Shown piece by piece: positions 169 to 5,853 of a DNA stretch of 57,791 nt; the stretch's first letter is position 1, and every line of letters starts with the position of its first letter. Below the pieces are notes generated by a model, which saw nothing but the letters and a program-made list of their open reading frames with translations, was not told where the DNA came from and searched no databases. The DNA is taken from NCBI GenBank assembly GCA_018830045.1, contig JAHJTF010000022.1, forward strand, positions 1-57,791, written 5' to 3'. A program made the translations under genes and the position numbers. This DNA comes from Patescibacteria group bacterium. Lineage in GTDB: Bacteria > Patescibacteriota > Microgenomatia > UBA1400 > PJMF01.

Positions 169-321
169 ATGGAAAAAGACCATTATTGTCAAGACAACGG
201 CGAAGGGGTTTGCATCATTTGTGGCGAACCTACGCCTGTGGGAATAAAAGAACTTAATCATTATTGTCAAGACAACGGCGAAGGGGTTTGCATCATTTGT
301 GGTCGCCGTATGAAGAAATAG
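169..321 (+). CDS. 50-aa Cys/His-rich small protein with two identical HYCQDNGEGVCIICG units (possible metal-binding protein)
   Basis: ATG at 169 follows SD-like AGAGGT (158-163); TAG at 319-321. Translation: MEKDHYCQDNGEGVCIICGEPTPVGIKELNHYCQDNGEGVCIICGRRMKK. Below the ORF-track cutoff. Confidence 0.7.
   Translation: MEKDHYCQDNGEGVCIICGEPTPVGIKELNHYCQDNGEGVCIICGRRMKK
181..302. repeat. Perfect 44-bp direct repeat x2 (181-224 and 259-302) with a 34-bp spacer
   Basis: CATTATTGTCAAGACAACGGCGAAGGGGTTTGCATCATTTGTGG occurs twice, period 78 nt (26 codons). Confidence 0.97.
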
Positions 322-341
322 CGACCAGATCATATTCAAAG

Positions 342-1586
342 TTATAAATGAATGTCTTGATTATCTATGATATCGAATGAATAATAAATTTTATTAAAAG
401 TTTTATTAAACCTCATCACTCCATCTTTAATGTTTTCTCCCTTAAACGATTTATCTAAAAACTCTGCAATTTGTTGCATTTCTTTTTTCTTCATTCCTCT
501 TCTGGTAATCTCTTGCGTACCTAGGCGGATAAACTTTCCTCTGCCCAGAGGCTGATCAAAGTTAACTGCGAGATGATTATTAAATAATTTGGCATAAAGA
601 TCTTTATAGTCGCCAATTTTTTCAGTAAATAAATGTACCTGATGATTTTCAGAATATCTCCCGGTGTTTGATTTTCTAATCTCATAACCTAAATTAGCTA
701 GCGAACCAGCTAAGTCGTTGGAGTTTTGAACCACTTGTTGAGCATAATTTTGTCCAAATTCTTTCATCTCCAATATCGTGGTAGCCAGGGCAATTAGATG
801 GTGGGTATGGGGGCTAGAATGTAAACAGCCATTGATGATAGCGTTGGCTTTATCTCCTAGATTTTTATCCTTGAACGCAATCATACCTTTTTGCGGTCCG
901 GGTAAAGTTTTATGAGTATTAGCGCTGATAACATCAGCTCCTTCAGTGAGGGGTGATTGAAATATTCCTCCCATAATTAAGCCCATGGTATGACTGGCAT
1001 CATAAATAATAATGGCTTTTTCACCCAAAGCCTGCCTAATTTCTCTTAGATTGTGAGGATTAATGTAGTAGGAAACGTCCATATAAAAAGCTGTGGCGTT
1101 TGAGTCTTGGAAAATTTTGGCTATTTTTTTTGTATCAAATCTTAAATTCTCTAGATCAAATTCTGCAAAAACCTGTTTTCTCCCTACTCTTTCTAAAATT
1201 CCCGCAGTAGCAAAGTGGCCGCCACTGTCTTTTTTAACAGTCATGATAGTATCGCCAGCTTGAGTTGTGGATAAAATTGAGCACATCATGGCGTGCACTC
1301 CAGAGAGACAATTTAAATTGACACTTTCTGCATGAAGCATTTTTTTAGCTGCCTCTTGGGCTTGATGTAATAATTTTTCAATTCCTGGGTAGCCAAGGGC
1401 AGTAAAGGGTCCAAGGTCAATTTTACTATTTGTTCCGCCGCCAAAATAATATCTTTCAGATAATTTTGAGCCCAAAAACATTCTGGCTGTTTCAGACATC
1501 TGAGCTTCATTGGCAGTTAGATGCAAAAAATTCTCATTTCTTTGTTCTTCTTTTTTGATAGTGGCAAGGATTGATTGTATATCCAT
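342..1586 (-). CDS. SHMT-fold PLP enzyme, L-threonine transaldolase-like (ObiH/ObaG type)
   Basis: LTANE, GGHFA, YDASHTMGLIMGG.F.SPL..GAD, NTHKTLPGPQKG (PLP lysine), HQVH, IRLGTQEITRRGMK and terminal YSFD. Lacks the GlyA signatures LIASEN, YAEGYP, GGHLTH and HKTLRGPRGG. Confidence 0.75.
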   Translation of the reverse strand: MDIQSILATIKKEEQRNENFLHLTANEAQMSETARMFLGSKLSERYYFGGGTNSKIDLGPFTALGYPGIEKLLHQAQEAAKKMLHAESVNLNCLSGVHAMMCSILSTTQAGDTIMTVKKDSGGHFATAGILERVGRKQVFAEFDLENLRFDTKKIAKIFQDSNATAFYMDVSYYINPHNLREIRQALGEKAIIIYDASHTMGLIMGGIFQSPLTEGADVISANTHKTLPGPQKGMIAFKDKNLGDKANAIINGCLHSSPHTHHLIALATTILEMKEFGQNYAQQVVQNSNDLAGSLANLGYEIRKSNTGRYSENHQVHLFTEKIGDYKDLYAKLFNNHLAVNFDQPLGRGKFIRLGTQEITRRGMKKKEMQQIAEFLDKSFKGENIKDGVMRFNKTFNKIYYSFDIIDNQDIHL

Positions 1587-1594
1587 ACTTTGAC

Positions 1595-1623
1595 ATTATA
1601 GTTGATCATTAATTTGGTACAAT
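1595..1623. promoter_or_regulatory. Back-to-back promoters: minus-strand TATAAT (1600-1595) for the PLP gene and plus-strand extended -10 TGgTACAAT (1615-1623) for the tRNAs
   Basis: TATAAT lies 8 nt before the ATG at 1586; TGnTACAAT lies 10 nt before the tRNA-Gly 5' end. Confidence 0.6.
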
Positions 1624-1633
1624 GAGTTAATTA

Positions 1634-1706
1634 GCGGTGGTAGCTCAGTTGGTAGAGCGTCTGCTTCCCAAGCAGAAGGTCGCGGGTTCGAACCCCGTTC
1701 ACCGCT
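1634..1706 (+). tRNA. tRNA-Gly (CCC)
   Basis: Acceptor GCGGTGG/TCACCGC, D-arm AGCTCAGTTGGTAGAGC, anticodon arm TCTGC-TTCCCAA-GCAGA, T-loop GGTTCGAACCC. CCA is not encoded. Confidence 0.96.
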
Positions 1707-1739
1707 CACTACCCACGCTATTTGTTCTTAGCAGAAGGC

Positions 1740-1812
1740 GCCTGCGTAGCTCAGTTGGTAGAGCAGCGGTATCGTAAACCGCAGGTCGTCGGTTCGACCC
1801 CGACCGCAGGCT
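1740..1812 (+). tRNA. tRNA-Thr (CGT)
   Basis: Acceptor GCCTGCG/CGCAGGC, anticodon arm GCGGT-ATCGTAA-ACCGC, T-loop GGTTCGACCCC. CCA is not encoded. Confidence 0.95.
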
Positions 1813-1838
1813 CGTATTTCTGGTAGTATGTAAGTATT

Positions 1839-2552
1839 ATGCCTAAGACACGATCGCGTCTCTCTAGAAAACAACAACAGCAGATGATGCACCAGACAGT
1901 TTTGATTGTCGTTGTTGCCCTATCTCTGCTAGTAGCCTTTATCTTTTTTATTATGCCGCAATTCCTAAGTTTAGCTGACAGCATTTTGAACGGCCCCAGT
2001 ATTCTTAATGAAGATCAGGATCAAATCCCTCCGCAAACCCCAATTTTAGCCGTTCCTGTTTCAGCCACCAACAGTGCTTCTCTATTAATCTCTGGAATTG
2101 GTGAGATGGCCAGTCAAGCAGTGCTGGTTCTCAATGGGGAAAAACTAGAAGAGGTGAAGATCGATGACAAGGGCGAGTTTAAGTTCAAAGTTAGTCTCAT
2201 AGAGGGCGGAAATGCTTTGGCAGTTTATAGTATTGATGAGGCAGGCAATGAATCAGTTCAAACTCGAGAATACAAAGTTACATTAGATACCGAAGCGCCA
2301 GTTCTTGAGGTAAGCAGCCCTGAAGATGGCAGTACTATAGAATTAAGAAAAAATCAAATTATTACCATTATTGGCACCACAGAGTCGCAGGCTAAAGTTT
2401 TTATTAACGATCGCTTGGTCTACGCAAAAGCTGATGGAAGCTTTTCCATGAGCTATAAACTTGAAGAAGGTGAAAACAAACTTAAATTCAAGGCGATAGA
2501 CAGAGGAGGAAATGAGAGCGAAAAAGAAATAACGGTTAAATTTAGGTTTTAG
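1839..2552 (+). CDS. Membrane-anchored protein with two bacterial Ig-like domains
   Basis: One N-terminal TM helix, then two beta-rich repeats with L.EG.N...A.D.AGN.S and DT.AP.L motifs. Confidence 0.75.
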   Translation: MPKTRSRLSRKQQQQMMHQTVLIVVVALSLLVAFIFFIMPQFLSLADSILNGPSILNEDQDQIPPQTPILAVPVSATNSASLLISGIGEMASQAVLVLNGEKLEEVKIDDKGEFKFKVSLIEGGNALAVYSIDEAGNESVQTREYKVTLDTEAPVLEVSSPEDGSTIELRKNQIITIIGTTESQAKVFINDRLVYAKADGSFSMSYKLEEGENKLKFKAIDRGGNESEKEITVKFRF

Positions 2553-3702
2553 ATTTCCCTAAAGAGAGTCCCAAACTTGATAGCCACAACCAAACAAATG
2601 GTTGAAATAAGGTATGATTAAATTGTGAATGGATAAGTATTGCAATAAACGCAGTGAATATAAAGATATCTTTATGATATAAATTTTGTCCAAATTTATA
2701 TAGGATAAATAAAAATATTATCAGCCCCACGACTCCAGTGGAAGTAAGAATAAAGACAATTAAGTTATCAGGAAAATGGGCAGTGTTATTTAAAAGCGAA
2801 GCATTTGATTGGGATGTTAAGGGTGCAAATAATCCTTTACCAATTAGCCATTGGTAATTTTTCAAACTTATTAAAGCAGATGAACTAGATTCAACTCTTG
2901 AGCTGACCGAAGCTGTTCTCTCCAGCCTAACTCCCTCCCCTGCCGGTCGAGGTAAAAATGGAAGTCCGATAATAAATAAGCTCATAATAATTATGAGAAA
3001 ATGATTTATTTTATGGGATTTAATAAAACGTAGTAATAAAAGGAACGCTCCTGATCCCAAAAAGCTTAAATAGCTAGCTCTGGAATATGTCAAGAGAAGA
3101 GTTGTCATAAAAAAGAGTGATATGCCTGTTTTTAACCAACCAGACTGTACTTTTATGGTTTGACTAAGAAAAAATGTTATGACTAAAATTATACCGGCAA
3201 AATTAGGATCAAATTGAGTGCTAATCAGCCTAAAATAATGGTCATCCCAGCCTAAGTATTTTAAAAATCGAGTATCAGGAAAAAAGAGATACTGCAACAA
3301 TCCCCAAAAACCGATCAAGAGCCCTACCATTATCCAAAGCTTAACCTGGCTTTTTCTAGAGAATGGTTTGATAAAAATCAGACTAAGCCCAAATAAACAG
3401 TAAGCAAAAGCTCTTAATAAATAAAGTAAAGGGATGGTGCTAAAGCCAGCGATAGCATAGTTAATGACTATTCCAAAGCATATCCAGCTAAGCGTAAGTA
3501 ACAAGAGTTTGTTTTTGGTCATTCTTTTAACTAATTTTATCCATTGATCTGGAAATTTAACGATACTTAGTATGAGCCAAATGAGTAAAACTATATCATA
3601 AATATAAAAAGCCAATACTTCAGTCAATTGAATTCTTTGTAGTTGCCCCAGAGAAAAAAGTGCTAAAATTAGCAAAAATAATGCTTGGAATACTTTTTTC
3701 AT
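2542..3702 (-). CDS. O-antigen ligase-like (Wzy_C) polytopic membrane protein
   Basis: Many TM helices; RLISTQFDPNFAG, LLLTYSRASYL, LIGKG, DN......TG.VG pattern. Confidence 0.75.
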   Translation of the reverse strand: MKKVFQALFLLILALFSLGQLQRIQLTEVLAFYIYDIVLLIWLILSIVKFPDQWIKLVKRMTKNKLLLLTLSWICFGIVINYAIAGFSTIPLLYLLRAFAYCLFGLSLIFIKPFSRKSQVKLWIMVGLLIGFWGLLQYLFFPDTRFLKYLGWDDHYFRLISTQFDPNFAGIILVITFFLSQTIKVQSGWLKTGISLFFMTTLLLTYSRASYLSFLGSGAFLLLLRFIKSHKINHFLIIIMSLFIIGLPFLPRPAGEGVRLERTASVSSRVESSSSALISLKNYQWLIGKGLFAPLTSQSNASLLNNTAHFPDNLIVFILTSTGVVGLIIFLFILYKFGQNLYHKDIFIFTAFIAILIHSQFNHTLFQPFVWLWLSSLGLSLGKSKT

Positions 3703-4397
3703 GATTTTTCGTGTTTTAATTCGTATTGCAAAACTCTCACTGCTAAAGAATGCAGGCTCATCATCACAGCATAGCTTAATCCTCGCCAGCCATCTAGAAA
3801 ACCGAGCTTTATTACATAATTATAGATAAACTTTCCCCAAGGATAAAAAAGTAGTTGGCAGAGATAAAAAGATTGGTTACTTTGATTTCGAAAATTTGTT
3901 TCTAGTTGTGCATAATTTGTTATAGAATTACAGAATGCTTGCAGAGATGAGTGGGCATAATGGAGAATTTTAATGTTGGATTTTCCCACCTCTCCTCTTA
4001 TGTTTGCTATTTCGTGAACTGGACGCTGCCATTTCATTTTTGTTTTTTTGCCCATTCTCAAAAGCACGGTGCTGCCCGCTTCACCAAATTTTAGTGGCTT
4101 ATCATAAAAAACATCTTGACGATTGATATAAACACCGTCAAGTTTGTTTTCAACAATAATTCTTCTTATTTCACTCACAGATTCTGCGGTGATGATCTCA
4201 TCACTATCTAAAAATAAAACCCACTCATACTTGGCTTTTTTTAAGGCTTGATTGCGAACAAAAGCAAAATCAGAAATTGATTCTTTTTTAATGACTAAAA
4301 CCTCGTTAGCAAATTGAGCTGATTTTTTGGCTTGGGCCAAAGTAGGAGCGTCGGGACGAGTGATAATAATAATACTTAAATTAGCGGTAATAGACAT
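3699..4397 (-). CDS. Glycosyltransferase family 2 (KdtX/WaaE-like)
   Basis: DFA.VRNQAL, WVLFLDSDE, PVHE, GFLDGWRG. Confidence 0.85.
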   Translation of the reverse strand: MSITANLSIIIITRPDAPTLAQAKKSAQFANEVLVIKKESISDFAFVRNQALKKAKYEWVLFLDSDEIITAESVSEIRRIIVENKLDGVYINRQDVFYDKPLKFGEAGSTVLLRMGKKTKMKWQRPVHEIANIRGEVGKSNIKILHYAHSSLQAFCNSITNYAQLETNFRNQSNQSFYLCQLLFYPWGKFIYNYVIKLGFLDGWRGLSYAVMMSLHSLAVRVLQYELKHEKS

Positions 4398-5853
4398 CGA
4401 GTGTATTAAATTCTACTTTAGTTATTCCTGGATAACTGGCTAAATCAGAGTTTTTGGATTCAATGTAGAATACCACACCCGACTTTTGGTTCTCAGGAAT
4501 GCCCATTTCTTGAGCCAACCAGCGAAGGTTATCAAAGAAACTCGGGAATTTTCCAGCCATCTGTGTTGTTGCAAATTGAAATTTTCCAGGTCTTAATTTA
4601 TTCAGATAATTAATAATTTGTCTCTGCTCACCAATTGAGGCTTGATAGCTAAATGATTGATGATTGCCCACAAAGAAGTTGTAATTAAAAATTGCGATAG
4701 TATTAGTGATAGCCAAAAATATAATCAGGAGTTTTAGAATCAAGTGATTTTTTTTCAAAATCAAATTTAAACCCCATCCCAAGAGCAAGCTCAATAAAGC
4801 AAAGTAAGGTGGGAAATAAGCCTCTGAAGGAGATCCGTGAGCAAAATAGCTTATTGTCAATAACAGAGTAGCCATAGCTATCAACTCAAGACCAGGCTGA
4901 AGTGATTTTCTTTTTTTAAGCAAAGTAAAAATGGTGAATAAAAGTATGCCTAAAAAGGCGATGGAAATTAGAATGTTCTCTACTCCAAATATTCGATGCC
5001 AGTACTGCCAATAAGAAGATAGGGTAATGATTAGTTTATTTATTGTTAGCTGATGTTGCCCAACTATACCGGTTAAAGAAATAATTCGGTAACCCACCCA
5101 GACAAAAAATCCTCCCAATTGGCTTTGGGAAATCGGAACAGACAAATCGTGAATGATTTGGGGCAAGAAACCAACCATGATTGCGGCAGATGCTTGCGAA
5201 ACTATCTGTAAGGAAATTTTTCTTTTTTGTCTCCATAAAATATAAGGAATCATTAGTCCCAGGGCAAATAAGGATAGTTCAAACTGCATTAATAAAGCCC
5301 AGGCCAATCCAGTTACAAAAACTCCATATTTTTGATCACGCCAAAGATAAAGTAAAGCAAAGAGAAAGATGATCATCACTAATGGAATTGGAGTGGTGTG
5401 ATAAGGCACGCGACTATTGGCTATAGCTAGGGGTGAAAAAGCAAATAAGGTTGCGGCTATTAAAGCAGTACCTTTATTGATGTGGACCAAAGCATATTCA
5501 TAGATAAAAATTAGAGCCAAAACACTTAAAAAAGCAAAGCTAAGTGAGAAAGCCAGTGTTTTTTGTCCAAAGAGCAAATAAATGACCATTTCTAACCAGA
5601 TAGCTACTGGGCCTTGGTGGAATCTTGGGATGCTGGAAGGAATTCCTAGTAAAGGCAGAGAGCCTGATTCAAGAGCCTGTTTGGCTACCATCAAATCCCG
5701 ACCGGCATCTCCAAAAAAGATGCCATGAGTGTTGATTTTCCAAGTTCTCAGCAAAGTAGCAGAAATAACAATCAAAACTATTAAGCTGTGTTGACGAATC
5801 AACTTCAGGATAGATTTAATTGTTAGTTGGTTTTGTTTGTTGATAGACACCAT
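4381..5853 (-). CDS. GT-C membrane glycosyltransferase (ArnT/PMT-like, GT83/39)
   Basis: LLR..I...IFFGDAGRDL, PLLGIPSS, LFAFSP.AI..SR and many TM segments. Confidence 0.75.
   Translation of the reverse strand: MVSINKQNQLTIKSILKLIRQHSLIVLIVISATLLRTWKINTHGIFFGDAGRDLMVAKQALESGSLPLLGIPSSIPRFHQGPVAIWLEMVIYLLFGQKTLAFSLSFAFLSVLALIFIYEYALVHINKGTALIAATLFAFSPLAIANSRVPYHTTPIPLVMIIFLFALLYLWRDQKYGVFVTGLAWALLMQFELSLFALGLMIPYILWRQKRKISLQIVSQASAAIMVGFLPQIIHDLSVPISQSQLGGFFVWVGYRIISLTGIVGQHQLTINKLIITLSSYWQYWHRIFGVENILISIAFLGILLFTIFTLLKKRKSLQPGLELIAMATLLLTISYFAHGSPSEAYFPPYFALLSLLLGWGLNLILKKNHLILKLLIIFLAITNTIAIFNYNFFVGNHQSFSYQASIGEQRQIINYLNKLRPGKFQFATTQMAGKFPSFFDNLRWLAQEMGIPENQKSGVVFYIESKNSDLASYPGITKVEFNTLDVYYR

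Follow-up and report, generated by a model that had tools for sequence, protein, structure and literature searches.

A probably acquired accessory gene in a Patescibacteria genome, with a product that groups with the L-threonine transaldolases of the serine hydroxymethyltransferase fold

The DNA analysed here, a stretch of 57,791 nucleotides that we call the window, lies on contig C16 of the genome of an ultra-small Patescibacteria group bacterium from groundwater (assembly GCA_018830045.1; 875,842 bases in 40 contigs, rated 99.57% complete). At 342..1586 on its reverse strand it carries an intact open reading frame (ORF) with an ATG start, which encodes a protein of 414 residues (P0001) that resembles L-threonine transaldolases (LTTAs), pyridoxal phosphate (PLP) enzymes of the serine hydroxymethyltransferase (SHMT) fold, according to its translation, its Pfam, NCBIfam and PDB matches and an AlphaFold2 model. 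Our comparisons support that P0001 belongs to the LTTA branch of this fold, outside the true SHMTs, and we lean slightly towards the reading that it is a folate-independent, PLP-dependent L-threonine transaldolase with a probably external aldehyde acceptor. This enzyme class is already known. A branch of it centred on the candidate phyla radiation (CPR) is undescribed in the literature searched, even if such sequences may be present already in the 859-node network of Jones et al. (2023). In one review, 'threonine transaldolase' and 'candidate phyla' co-occur with a single mention of each.

Two trees carry this placement. A HMMER search of 1.84 billion cluster representatives returned 2306 relatives of P0001 at E <= 1e-3 and 287 at E <= 1e-30, the best of them 55% identical. 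As references for ObiH (ObaG; PDB 7K34), an L-threonine:arylacetaldehyde transaldolase, we used two orthologues of 440 residues from Pseudomonas genomes, found by a motif pattern, that match the 7k34 chain apart from a few residues over the aligned stretch compared. Fluorothreonine transaldolases (FTases) were represented by P0181 (638 residues, with a class II aldolase domain; 809.9 bits) and P0153 (666.3 bits), both of which pass the cut-off of the NCBIfam model TIGR04506, and SHMTs by P0240 and P0241, which pass that of NF000586 with 471.5 and 453.1 bits; P0241 also matches the SHMT of Methanocaldococcus jannaschii with 370 bits. The first tree, made with FastTree, had 138 rows: the query, 8 CPR homologues, 120 representatives of 380-470 residues (among the 150 listed), 6 longer proteins trimmed to their SHMT-like part, the two ObiH orthologues and the GlyA of the genome. 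A 115-row clade with support 100 contained the ObiH group, the FTase pair and the CPR group, and a grade of archaeal-type SHMT-like proteins adjoined GlyA. In the second tree (IQ-TREE, LG+C20+F+G4), built on 57 rows picked after the first tree had been seen, a 45-row clade (support 99) united the CPR group with ObiH and the fluorothreonine enzymes. Within it, the FTase pair and a 29-row group formed a 32-row clade (support 98), and the CPR sequences lay within a 20-row clade (support 98) of the 29-row group. P0240, P0241 and the CPR GlyAs fell outside the transaldolase clade in both trees. Furthermore, forcing the 7 CPR rows and the 12 SHMT rows together cost 180.03 log-likelihood units in an approximately unbiased (AU) test (p-AU 4.65e-56), a value that has to be read knowing that the groups were named after the tree was seen, contrary to the assumption of the test. 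LipK, OrfA/KaTTA, PbTTA and PF01212-type aldolases were not among the tree rows. According to Scott et al. (2017), the L-threonine transaldolases form a discrete lineage apart from SHMTs and L-threonine aldolases, and P0001 falls into such a lineage with clade supports of 100 and 99. The initial annotation of this DNA, made from the sequence alone, had proposed a tree as a check on its idea of an L-threonine transaldolase-like enzyme, and the idea has withstood it, with P0001 outside the true SHMTs in two trees and the opposite constraint rejected by the AU test.

Among the labelled enzymes, FTase is the nearest to P0001 in both trees. P0001 is 35% identical to P0181 over 380 residues with 5 gaps, and 30% identical to an ObiH orthologue with 25 gaps, ObiH lying in another subclade. 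The likeness to ObiH/ObaG that had been claimed at the outset stands as far as membership of the LTTA clade and retention of the ObiH catalytic residues are concerned, but the nearest characterised relative is the FTase. The residues H98, M100, N26, D170 and K233 and a long loop 1 are common to FTase and P0001, and TIGR04506 is the top NCBIfam model for P0001 (profile positions 2-406 of 609). However, the score of 263.5 bits is far below the equivalog cut-off of 650, P0001 lies outside the FTase subclade and its PGPQK motif has Pro where the FTase rows have Phe. Moreover, it ends at residue 414 without the C-terminal class II aldolase-like domain that P0181 carries (PF00596). An FTase equivalog identity for P0001 was ruled out on account of the score and of the missing two-domain architecture. 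The second NCBIfam model is the SHMT model NF000586, with 207.4 bits for a cut-off of 335, and since both scores are below their cut-offs P0001 has earned neither of the two names. Scott et al. (2017) and Jones et al. (2023) place the LipK-type L-threonine:uridine-5'-aldehyde transaldolases in this class of enzymes as well.

The SHMT-fold domain is clearly present in P0001, with 110.7 bits to the Pfam model PF00464 (cut-off 27), although this model is non-discriminating between SHMTs and transaldolases because it also matches ObiH-type and FTase-type proteins. PF01212, the domain of LtaE/GLY1-type L-threonine aldolases, is not among the Pfam matches of P0001 at E <= 0.01. All the motifs that the initial annotation had listed are found in the intact ORF (LTANE at residue 23, GGHFA at 122, YDASH at 195, GLIMGG at 202, FQSPL at 209, NTHKTLPGPQKG at 223 and YSFD at 402), and a motif search of the protein found neither the YAEGY (Y-x-E-G-Y) nor the RGPRGG motif of SHMTs, as it had also stated. 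Its expectation that such a gene would be called GlyA automatically is borne out in part: close relatives are named 'glycine/serine hydroxymethyltransferase' by JGI, but 'DegT/DnrJ/EryC1/StrS family aminotransferase' by NCBI, and others are hypothetical proteins. An Atlas look-up for P0001 gave generic SHMT-domain clusters only, mostly of Actinomycetota.

The residues of the active site agree with this placement. In ObiH, H131, D204 and K234 are catalytic and Y55, E107 and R366 stabilise PLP (Jones et al. 2023). In our alignments Y55, H131, D204, K234 and R366 correspond to Y46, H124, D196, K226 and R354 of P0001, all five invariant in the 21 sequences of the CPR clade; being shared with SHMTs, these residues are necessary, not discriminating. 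The sixth one, E107, corresponds to M100 in P0001, at a position that is not conserved between clusters (Jones et al. 2023). P0001 and ObiH also have in common the NTHKT-PGPQKG and YSFD motifs. Lys226 (codon at 909..911 on the reverse strand), within NTHKT, aligns with ObiH K234 in a column that is invariant in the 57 rows of the alignment, and it is predicted to form the Schiff base with PLP. P0001 has Phe48 (codon at 1443..1445, reverse strand) where the catalytic Glu of SHMTs is located. In the same 57-row alignment this column holds E in 9 of the 12 SHMT rows, C or M in the ObiH rows, L in the FTase rows and M, F, L or I over the 7 CPR rows. This Glu of the Y-x-E-G-Y motif is the residue that we take to be E57 in E. 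coli and E53 in B. stearothermophilus numbering. In B. stearothermophilus SHMT it is reportedly needed for the folate-dependent step, folate-independent retro-aldol cleavage being said to survive its loss; structures of the SHMT mutants E53Q, Y51F, Y61A, N341A and F351G appear among the matches of our fold search. Five further columns, derived from the present alignment and not from the literature, separate ObiH and FTase from SHMTs, and the CPR rows have the transaldolase state at all of them (7/7): N26 (S in SHMTs), F125 (L or I), D170 (G in 12 of 12), N223 (S or T) and K233 (G in 9 of 12). D170 opens a D-x-S-Y-Y segment that is invariant.

Two loops point in the same direction. They correspond to the folate-binding regions in SHMT and are variable, specificity-related parts of the transaldolases (Jones et al. 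2023). Loop 1 has 18 residues in P0001 versus 11 in most SHMT rows (7 longer), and the loop before R354 (R-x-G-T) is about 9 residues shorter than in the GlyA of the genome and in P0241, as it is in the FTase row. The AlphaFold2 model of P0001, built on 21 relatives, has a mean predicted local distance difference test score of 87.4 and contains a predicted beta-hairpin in loop 1 (strands E55-57 and E62-64); a beta-hairpin in loop 1 is also a feature of PbTTA, an active enzyme 27% identical to ObiH (Jones et al. 2023). ObiH 7k34 is the best PDB match of P0001 both by sequence (E 5.5e-47) and by structure (TM-score 0.83), near-tied with the M. jannaschii SHMT (4bhd, E 1.2e-46; TM-score 0.82-0.85). 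The SHMT fold is certain, but with such a near-tie the fold alone cannot decide the function. The archaeal-type SHMTs (4BHD/4UQV) also have a YSFD-like C-terminal tail; however, P0240 and P0241, which represent this type, retain R-Y-A-E-G, score above the SHMT cut-off and are placed outside the transaldolase clade.

As the initial annotation had suggested checking, we looked for a separate canonical glyA in the genome and found it at 27139-28278 of contig C9. In the same search it reached 470.9 bits to the Pfam SHMT model versus 110.5 for the P0001 gene; folD is located 2.3 kb away and thyA on contig C33. Its product has the fold and the PLP-binding core of P0001, but the two proteins are 29% identical and GlyA has K-Y-S-E-G-Y, RGPRG and a long loop before R-L-G-T. 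P0001 is not the SHMT of this cell.

The distribution suggests that this is a rare accessory gene, probably acquired. A word-indexed search gave 641 relatives. Identity to P0001 is 62-100% in the 120 listed, and named carriers among these are Pacebacteria, Woesebacteria, Amesbacteria, Saccharibacteria or 'Patescibacteria group'. Copies 60-79% identical occur across Patescibacteria classes. Among 41 close relatives, own genome included, only three carry the gene: the present genome (G000), G003 (79%) and G019 (65%). The matches of 30 other genomes at E <= 1e-20 are 27-31% identical and correspond to their own canonical glyA. Of 400 other genomes drawn evenly across the phylum, two carry it at E <= 1e-60, with 58% and 49% identity. 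When species genomes were scanned with a profile built on the 20-row clade, the matches were mostly Patescibacteria at >= 44% identity, together with single records of Dactylosporangium (42%), Streptomyces (36%) and Oligoflexia (45%), the lower-identity matches being archaeal SHMTs. Several 'MAG TPA_asm' records with CPR-type copies are titled uncultured Pseudomonadales, Gammaproteobacteria or Berkiella, labels that look unreliable. The base composition of the gene is mildly off (GC 36.3% and third-position GC 30.6% versus 39.5% for the genome), which we do not take as evidence of transfer.

The spot that the gene occupies is variable too. The five genus-mates (G001-G005) all keep a block formed by tRNA-Gly(CCC) (1634-1707, forward strand), tRNA-Thr(CGT) (1740-1813, forward strand), an Ig-like surface protein, a Wzy_C O-antigen-ligase-like protein and a family 2 glycosyltransferase (GT2). 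ARAGORN confirmed both tRNAs on the forward strand, divergent from the gene; the first marks the edge of the variable spot and the second belongs to the conserved flank. Across tRNA-Gly from that flank lies the transaldolase-like gene in G000 and G003, and in metagenome contigs with copies 78-79% identical the arrangement is the same; in one of these orthologous loci (L048) a zinc-finger protein and, further on, housekeeping genes come after the gene, with no partner. The contigs of G001 and G004 end at the tRNA. In the remaining two genus-mates the same spot has other occupants: in G005 an aminoglycoside 3-N-acetyltransferase-family gene (L041:391-1179, reverse strand), together with a fragment in which inspection by eye suggests a HicB-type antitoxin, and in G002 (L044:3-1493, reverse strand) cupin and Fic genes. 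The gene is a single-gene occupant of a variable spot beside tRNA-Gly.

A tRNA lies within 1 kb of the gene in 15 of 94 loci, with identities Pro, Asp, His, Arg, Lys, Val, Asn and Glu besides the Gly/Thr pair, and Phe and Ser tRNAs lie just past 1 kb in two loci. The tally is about 20 tRNAs in 159 kb of flank versus about 8 expected from the genome-wide density; as many of the loci are kin, we take this proximity as a modest hint and not as a test. The initial annotation had noted that tRNA-Gly and tRNA-Thr match the likely product and substrate of the enzyme. This match is a coincidence: the tRNA pair and its flank are kept in genus-mates that do not have the gene, and relatives of the gene adjoin tRNAs of at least eight other identities.

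In the proposed reaction, L-threonine, or a similar beta-hydroxy-alpha-amino acid, would bind as an external aldimine on Lys226, the bond between C-alpha and C-beta would be cleaved with release of acetaldehyde, and the resulting glycyl-quinonoid would be handed to another aldehyde to yield a new beta-hydroxy-alpha-amino acid. The acceptor would probably come from outside the known pathways of the cell, that is, from a host or from the environment. This course of reaction is expected because P0001 sits between two characterised transaldolases, keeps their catalytic set and has lost the folate-specific features; the threonine donor, the transaldol rather than simple aldol outcome and the external acceptor are inferences. 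The roles that the initial annotation had named, such as aldehyde detoxification, Thr-to-Gly conversion or a glycan building block, are guesses at this stage.

Several observations weigh against this reading. The identity to characterised enzymes is only 30-35%, and 3 of 12 candidates, one of them from the FTase cluster, were inactive on the single aromatic aldehyde used for screening (Jones et al. 2023), so membership of the clade is no guarantee of activity. ObiH follows a thiamine diphosphate (ThDP) decarboxylase in a nonribosomal peptide synthetase cluster (Scott et al. 2017), and no such partner was found in the genome of P0001. When this genome was searched by tblastn with 37 neighbour proteins from other loci, no aldehyde-generating partner was detected, the only matches being an Ldh_2 homologue (C5:19036-19998, 36%), a HAD and RmuC. 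The window holds no aldehyde-forming partner or biosynthetic cluster either. The initial statement that no partner was in view is therefore right for the window and for the tblastn search of the genome, but the contig stops 341 bp downstream of the gene, and the 'new system' that had been suggested is too strong a term for one accessory gene, for which our search of the genome yielded no partner. As regards the acetaldehyde that would be released, no DeoC, aldehyde dehydrogenase, Fe-dependent alcohol dehydrogenase (ADH) or Zn-ADH N-domain was found in this 99.57%-complete genome. Around the relatives, the commonest neighbour family occurs in at most 7 of the 94 loci, several counts coming from near-identical lineages. 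Finally, in L100 (6860-7925, reverse strand) an insertion sequence (IS) element, with an rve integrase ORF of 277 residues and an HTH_Tnp_1 ORF of 82 residues, cuts an orthologue 79% identical to P0001 after about residue 286-299, and because of this interruption the gene is dispensable in that population.

The absence of a partner can also be explained if P0001 is a folate-independent aldolase of threonine or of other beta-hydroxy amino acids, which would convert scavenged L-threonine to glycine and acetaldehyde and thus provide glycine, or a use of threonine, free of tetrahydrofolate (THF). A transaldolase would hold the quinonoid, and an aldolase would protonate it and let glycine go. SHMT-fold enzymes do catalyse THF-independent retro-aldol cleavage. 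P0001 is a stand-alone enzyme in a genome where neither a partner to make an acceptor nor an LtaE-type aldolase gene (PF01212) was found, and a PF01212 gene adjoins the homologue in 4 of the 94 loci, which points to related amino-acid chemistry. We nevertheless consider this alternative rather unlikely, since the gene is rare (2/400 Patescibacteria, 3/41 close relatives) and cannot be a general glycine supply, the canonical GlyA already makes glycine, and no acetaldehyde-consuming enzyme was found in the genome. Furthermore, ObiH, KaTTA and PbTTA used L-threonine as their only donor and gave no product from glycine or serine (Jones et al. 2023).

[quoted passage not shown] The aminoglycoside 3-N-acetyltransferase-family gene of G005 and the Fic and cupin genes of G002 at the same spot would fit this, as would the neighbours found directly upstream in the 14 genome loci, namely GNAT acetyltransferases in three of them and a glyoxalase/bleomycin-resistance-family gene in one; rarity combined with 60-79% identity across classes fits a transferable trait. 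Yet all this is association only, the neighbours vary widely and the SHMT fold is not known to serve in any resistance mechanism, a point at which no literature search was aimed, so we regard a protective function as quite unlikely.

Different PLP chemistry on a sugar-, nucleoside- or sulfonate-derived carbonyl, for example in the tailoring of surface polymers, or a role that needs host-encoded partners, seems to us to have similarly poor prospects. The flank in the window (1839-4397) is in fact a surface-polymer region, with a membrane-anchored Ig-like protein (Glucodextran_B, Big_6), the Wzy_C O-antigen-ligase-like protein and GT2; however, this glycan flank is also kept in genus-mates without the gene. 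Other hints come from the survey of homologue neighbourhoods that the initial annotation had called for, in which we clustered 94 loci (14 of 17 genome-contig loci, L016-L029, with L015, L030 and L031 left out, and 80 metagenome loci). A GT2 gene is directly upstream in L020, and kinase-like and GFO-like neighbours occur. In L054 (4366-8348, forward strand) three genes come after the homologue, for a class I/II aminotransferase, an Ldh_2-family dehydrogenase and a phosphatase of the ComB type (2-phosphosulfolactate phosphatase), and this set would fit sulfolactate, sulfopyruvate or cysteate chemistry. Each of these associations occurs in few loci, 7 of 94 at most, which argues against building a function on them.

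Nearly all the recurrent neighbours of the relatives are small-molecule enzymes. A protein of 460 residues with a weak match to a ThDP-binding domain is encoded directly upstream in 7 of the 94 loci, GFO/IDH/MocA-like proteins are found upstream (4 loci have family f6 at -2, and 5 loci, all from one lineage, have family f17 at -1), and directly downstream we found an alanine-racemase-like gene in 5 loci and a class I/II aminotransferase in 5; HAD phosphatases occur in 4, the same number as for the PF01212 lyase/aldolase genes. Three loci (L104, L107 and L108) have a complete string of four genes in the order GFO-like, ThDP-like, transaldolase-like, racemase-like, and L097, L110, L111, L113 and L126 have part of it; the transaldolase-like copies in these loci are 49-57% identical to P0001. 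Neither the ThDP-like nor the GFO-like neighbour proteins had matches when searched by sequence in the PDB. Some relatives are fusion proteins: in P0123 (47% identical) a GFO/IDH/MocA oxidoreductase forms the N-terminal part, P0155 includes an ATP-grasp amino-acid ligase, and P0213 includes a B12-radical SAM methyltransferase. In obafluorin biosynthesis the ThDP decarboxylase ObaH is followed by the transaldolase ObaG (Scott et al. 2017), and by analogy the ThDP-like and GFO-like neighbours, the aminotransferase downstream and the GFO/IDH/MocA fusion, as enzymes able to make carbonyl substrates, parallel this order, which we count in favour of the transaldolase reading. In L125 (2884-5525, forward strand) the transaldolase-like cluster includes a pair of ORFs that overlap (2884-4218 and 3888-5525), which may reflect a tandem duplication, a frameshift or an artefact of ORF calling.

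A true SHMT paralogue that interconverts serine and glycine with THF or another pterin is highly improbable, because the Pfam score above its cut-off, the near-tie of M. jannaschii SHMT with ObiH by sequence and fold and the SHMT names given to relatives are outweighed by the NCBIfam score of 207.4 against 335, the Phe at the Glu position, the shortened loop before R354, the rejection by trees and AU test and the canonical glyA, folD and thyA already present.

The threonine transaldolases known so far come from a few antibiotic pathways, and there is demand for them as biocatalysts. A large and well-conserved branch of these enzymes is unexpected in Patescibacteria, which have hardly any biosynthesis of their own, and it hints at small-molecule chemistry in the relationship between epibiont and host. 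If the preferred transaldolase function holds, one may imagine a mobile, single-gene, threonine-dependent 'glycyl exchanger' with which ultra-small epibionts would act on aldehydes or beta-hydroxy amino acids of hosts or competitors, making or destroying a bioactive one without a gene cluster and spreading via tRNA-flanked spots, a speculation that we put forward as unlikely in this full form. Annotators of CPR genomes should not take a second 'glyA', or a 'DegT aminotransferase', as a sign of one-carbon metabolism. P0001 is short, has a single domain and is amenable to published assays; a SUMO tag was found to be helpful for enzymes of this family (Jones et al. 2023).

With respect to expression, a perfect TATAAT lies at 1595..1600 on the reverse strand (1600-1595). 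It is separated from the ATG by 8 nt and preceded at 16 nt by TTGTAC, and the TTGTA...TATAAT stretch is retained in the 78%-identical orthologue of L048. It is a possible leaderless or short-leader promoter. The -10 box that the initial annotation had assigned to the gene is thus there, and kept in that orthologue, but our consensus promoter scan did not list this TATAAT because its -35 agrees at only 3 of 6 positions; promoter-like sites in the scan were no more numerous than in shuffles (5 versus a mean of 5.0). Contigs of a groundwater metatranscriptome run (X7) cover the tRNA region and parts of the Ig-like gene and none of them covers 349-1566, which proves nothing about the gene because these data are contigs.

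Between the gene and the end of the contig there is an ORF of 50 residues (169-321, forward strand), convergent with the gene, whose product contains two copies of HYCQDNGEGVCIICG and gives only sub-threshold zinc-finger hints in Pfam. A direct repeat of 44 bases, exact at the DNA level, starts at 181 and 259 within this ORF, and Logan contigs of three DNA runs contain an alternative form across 119-289.

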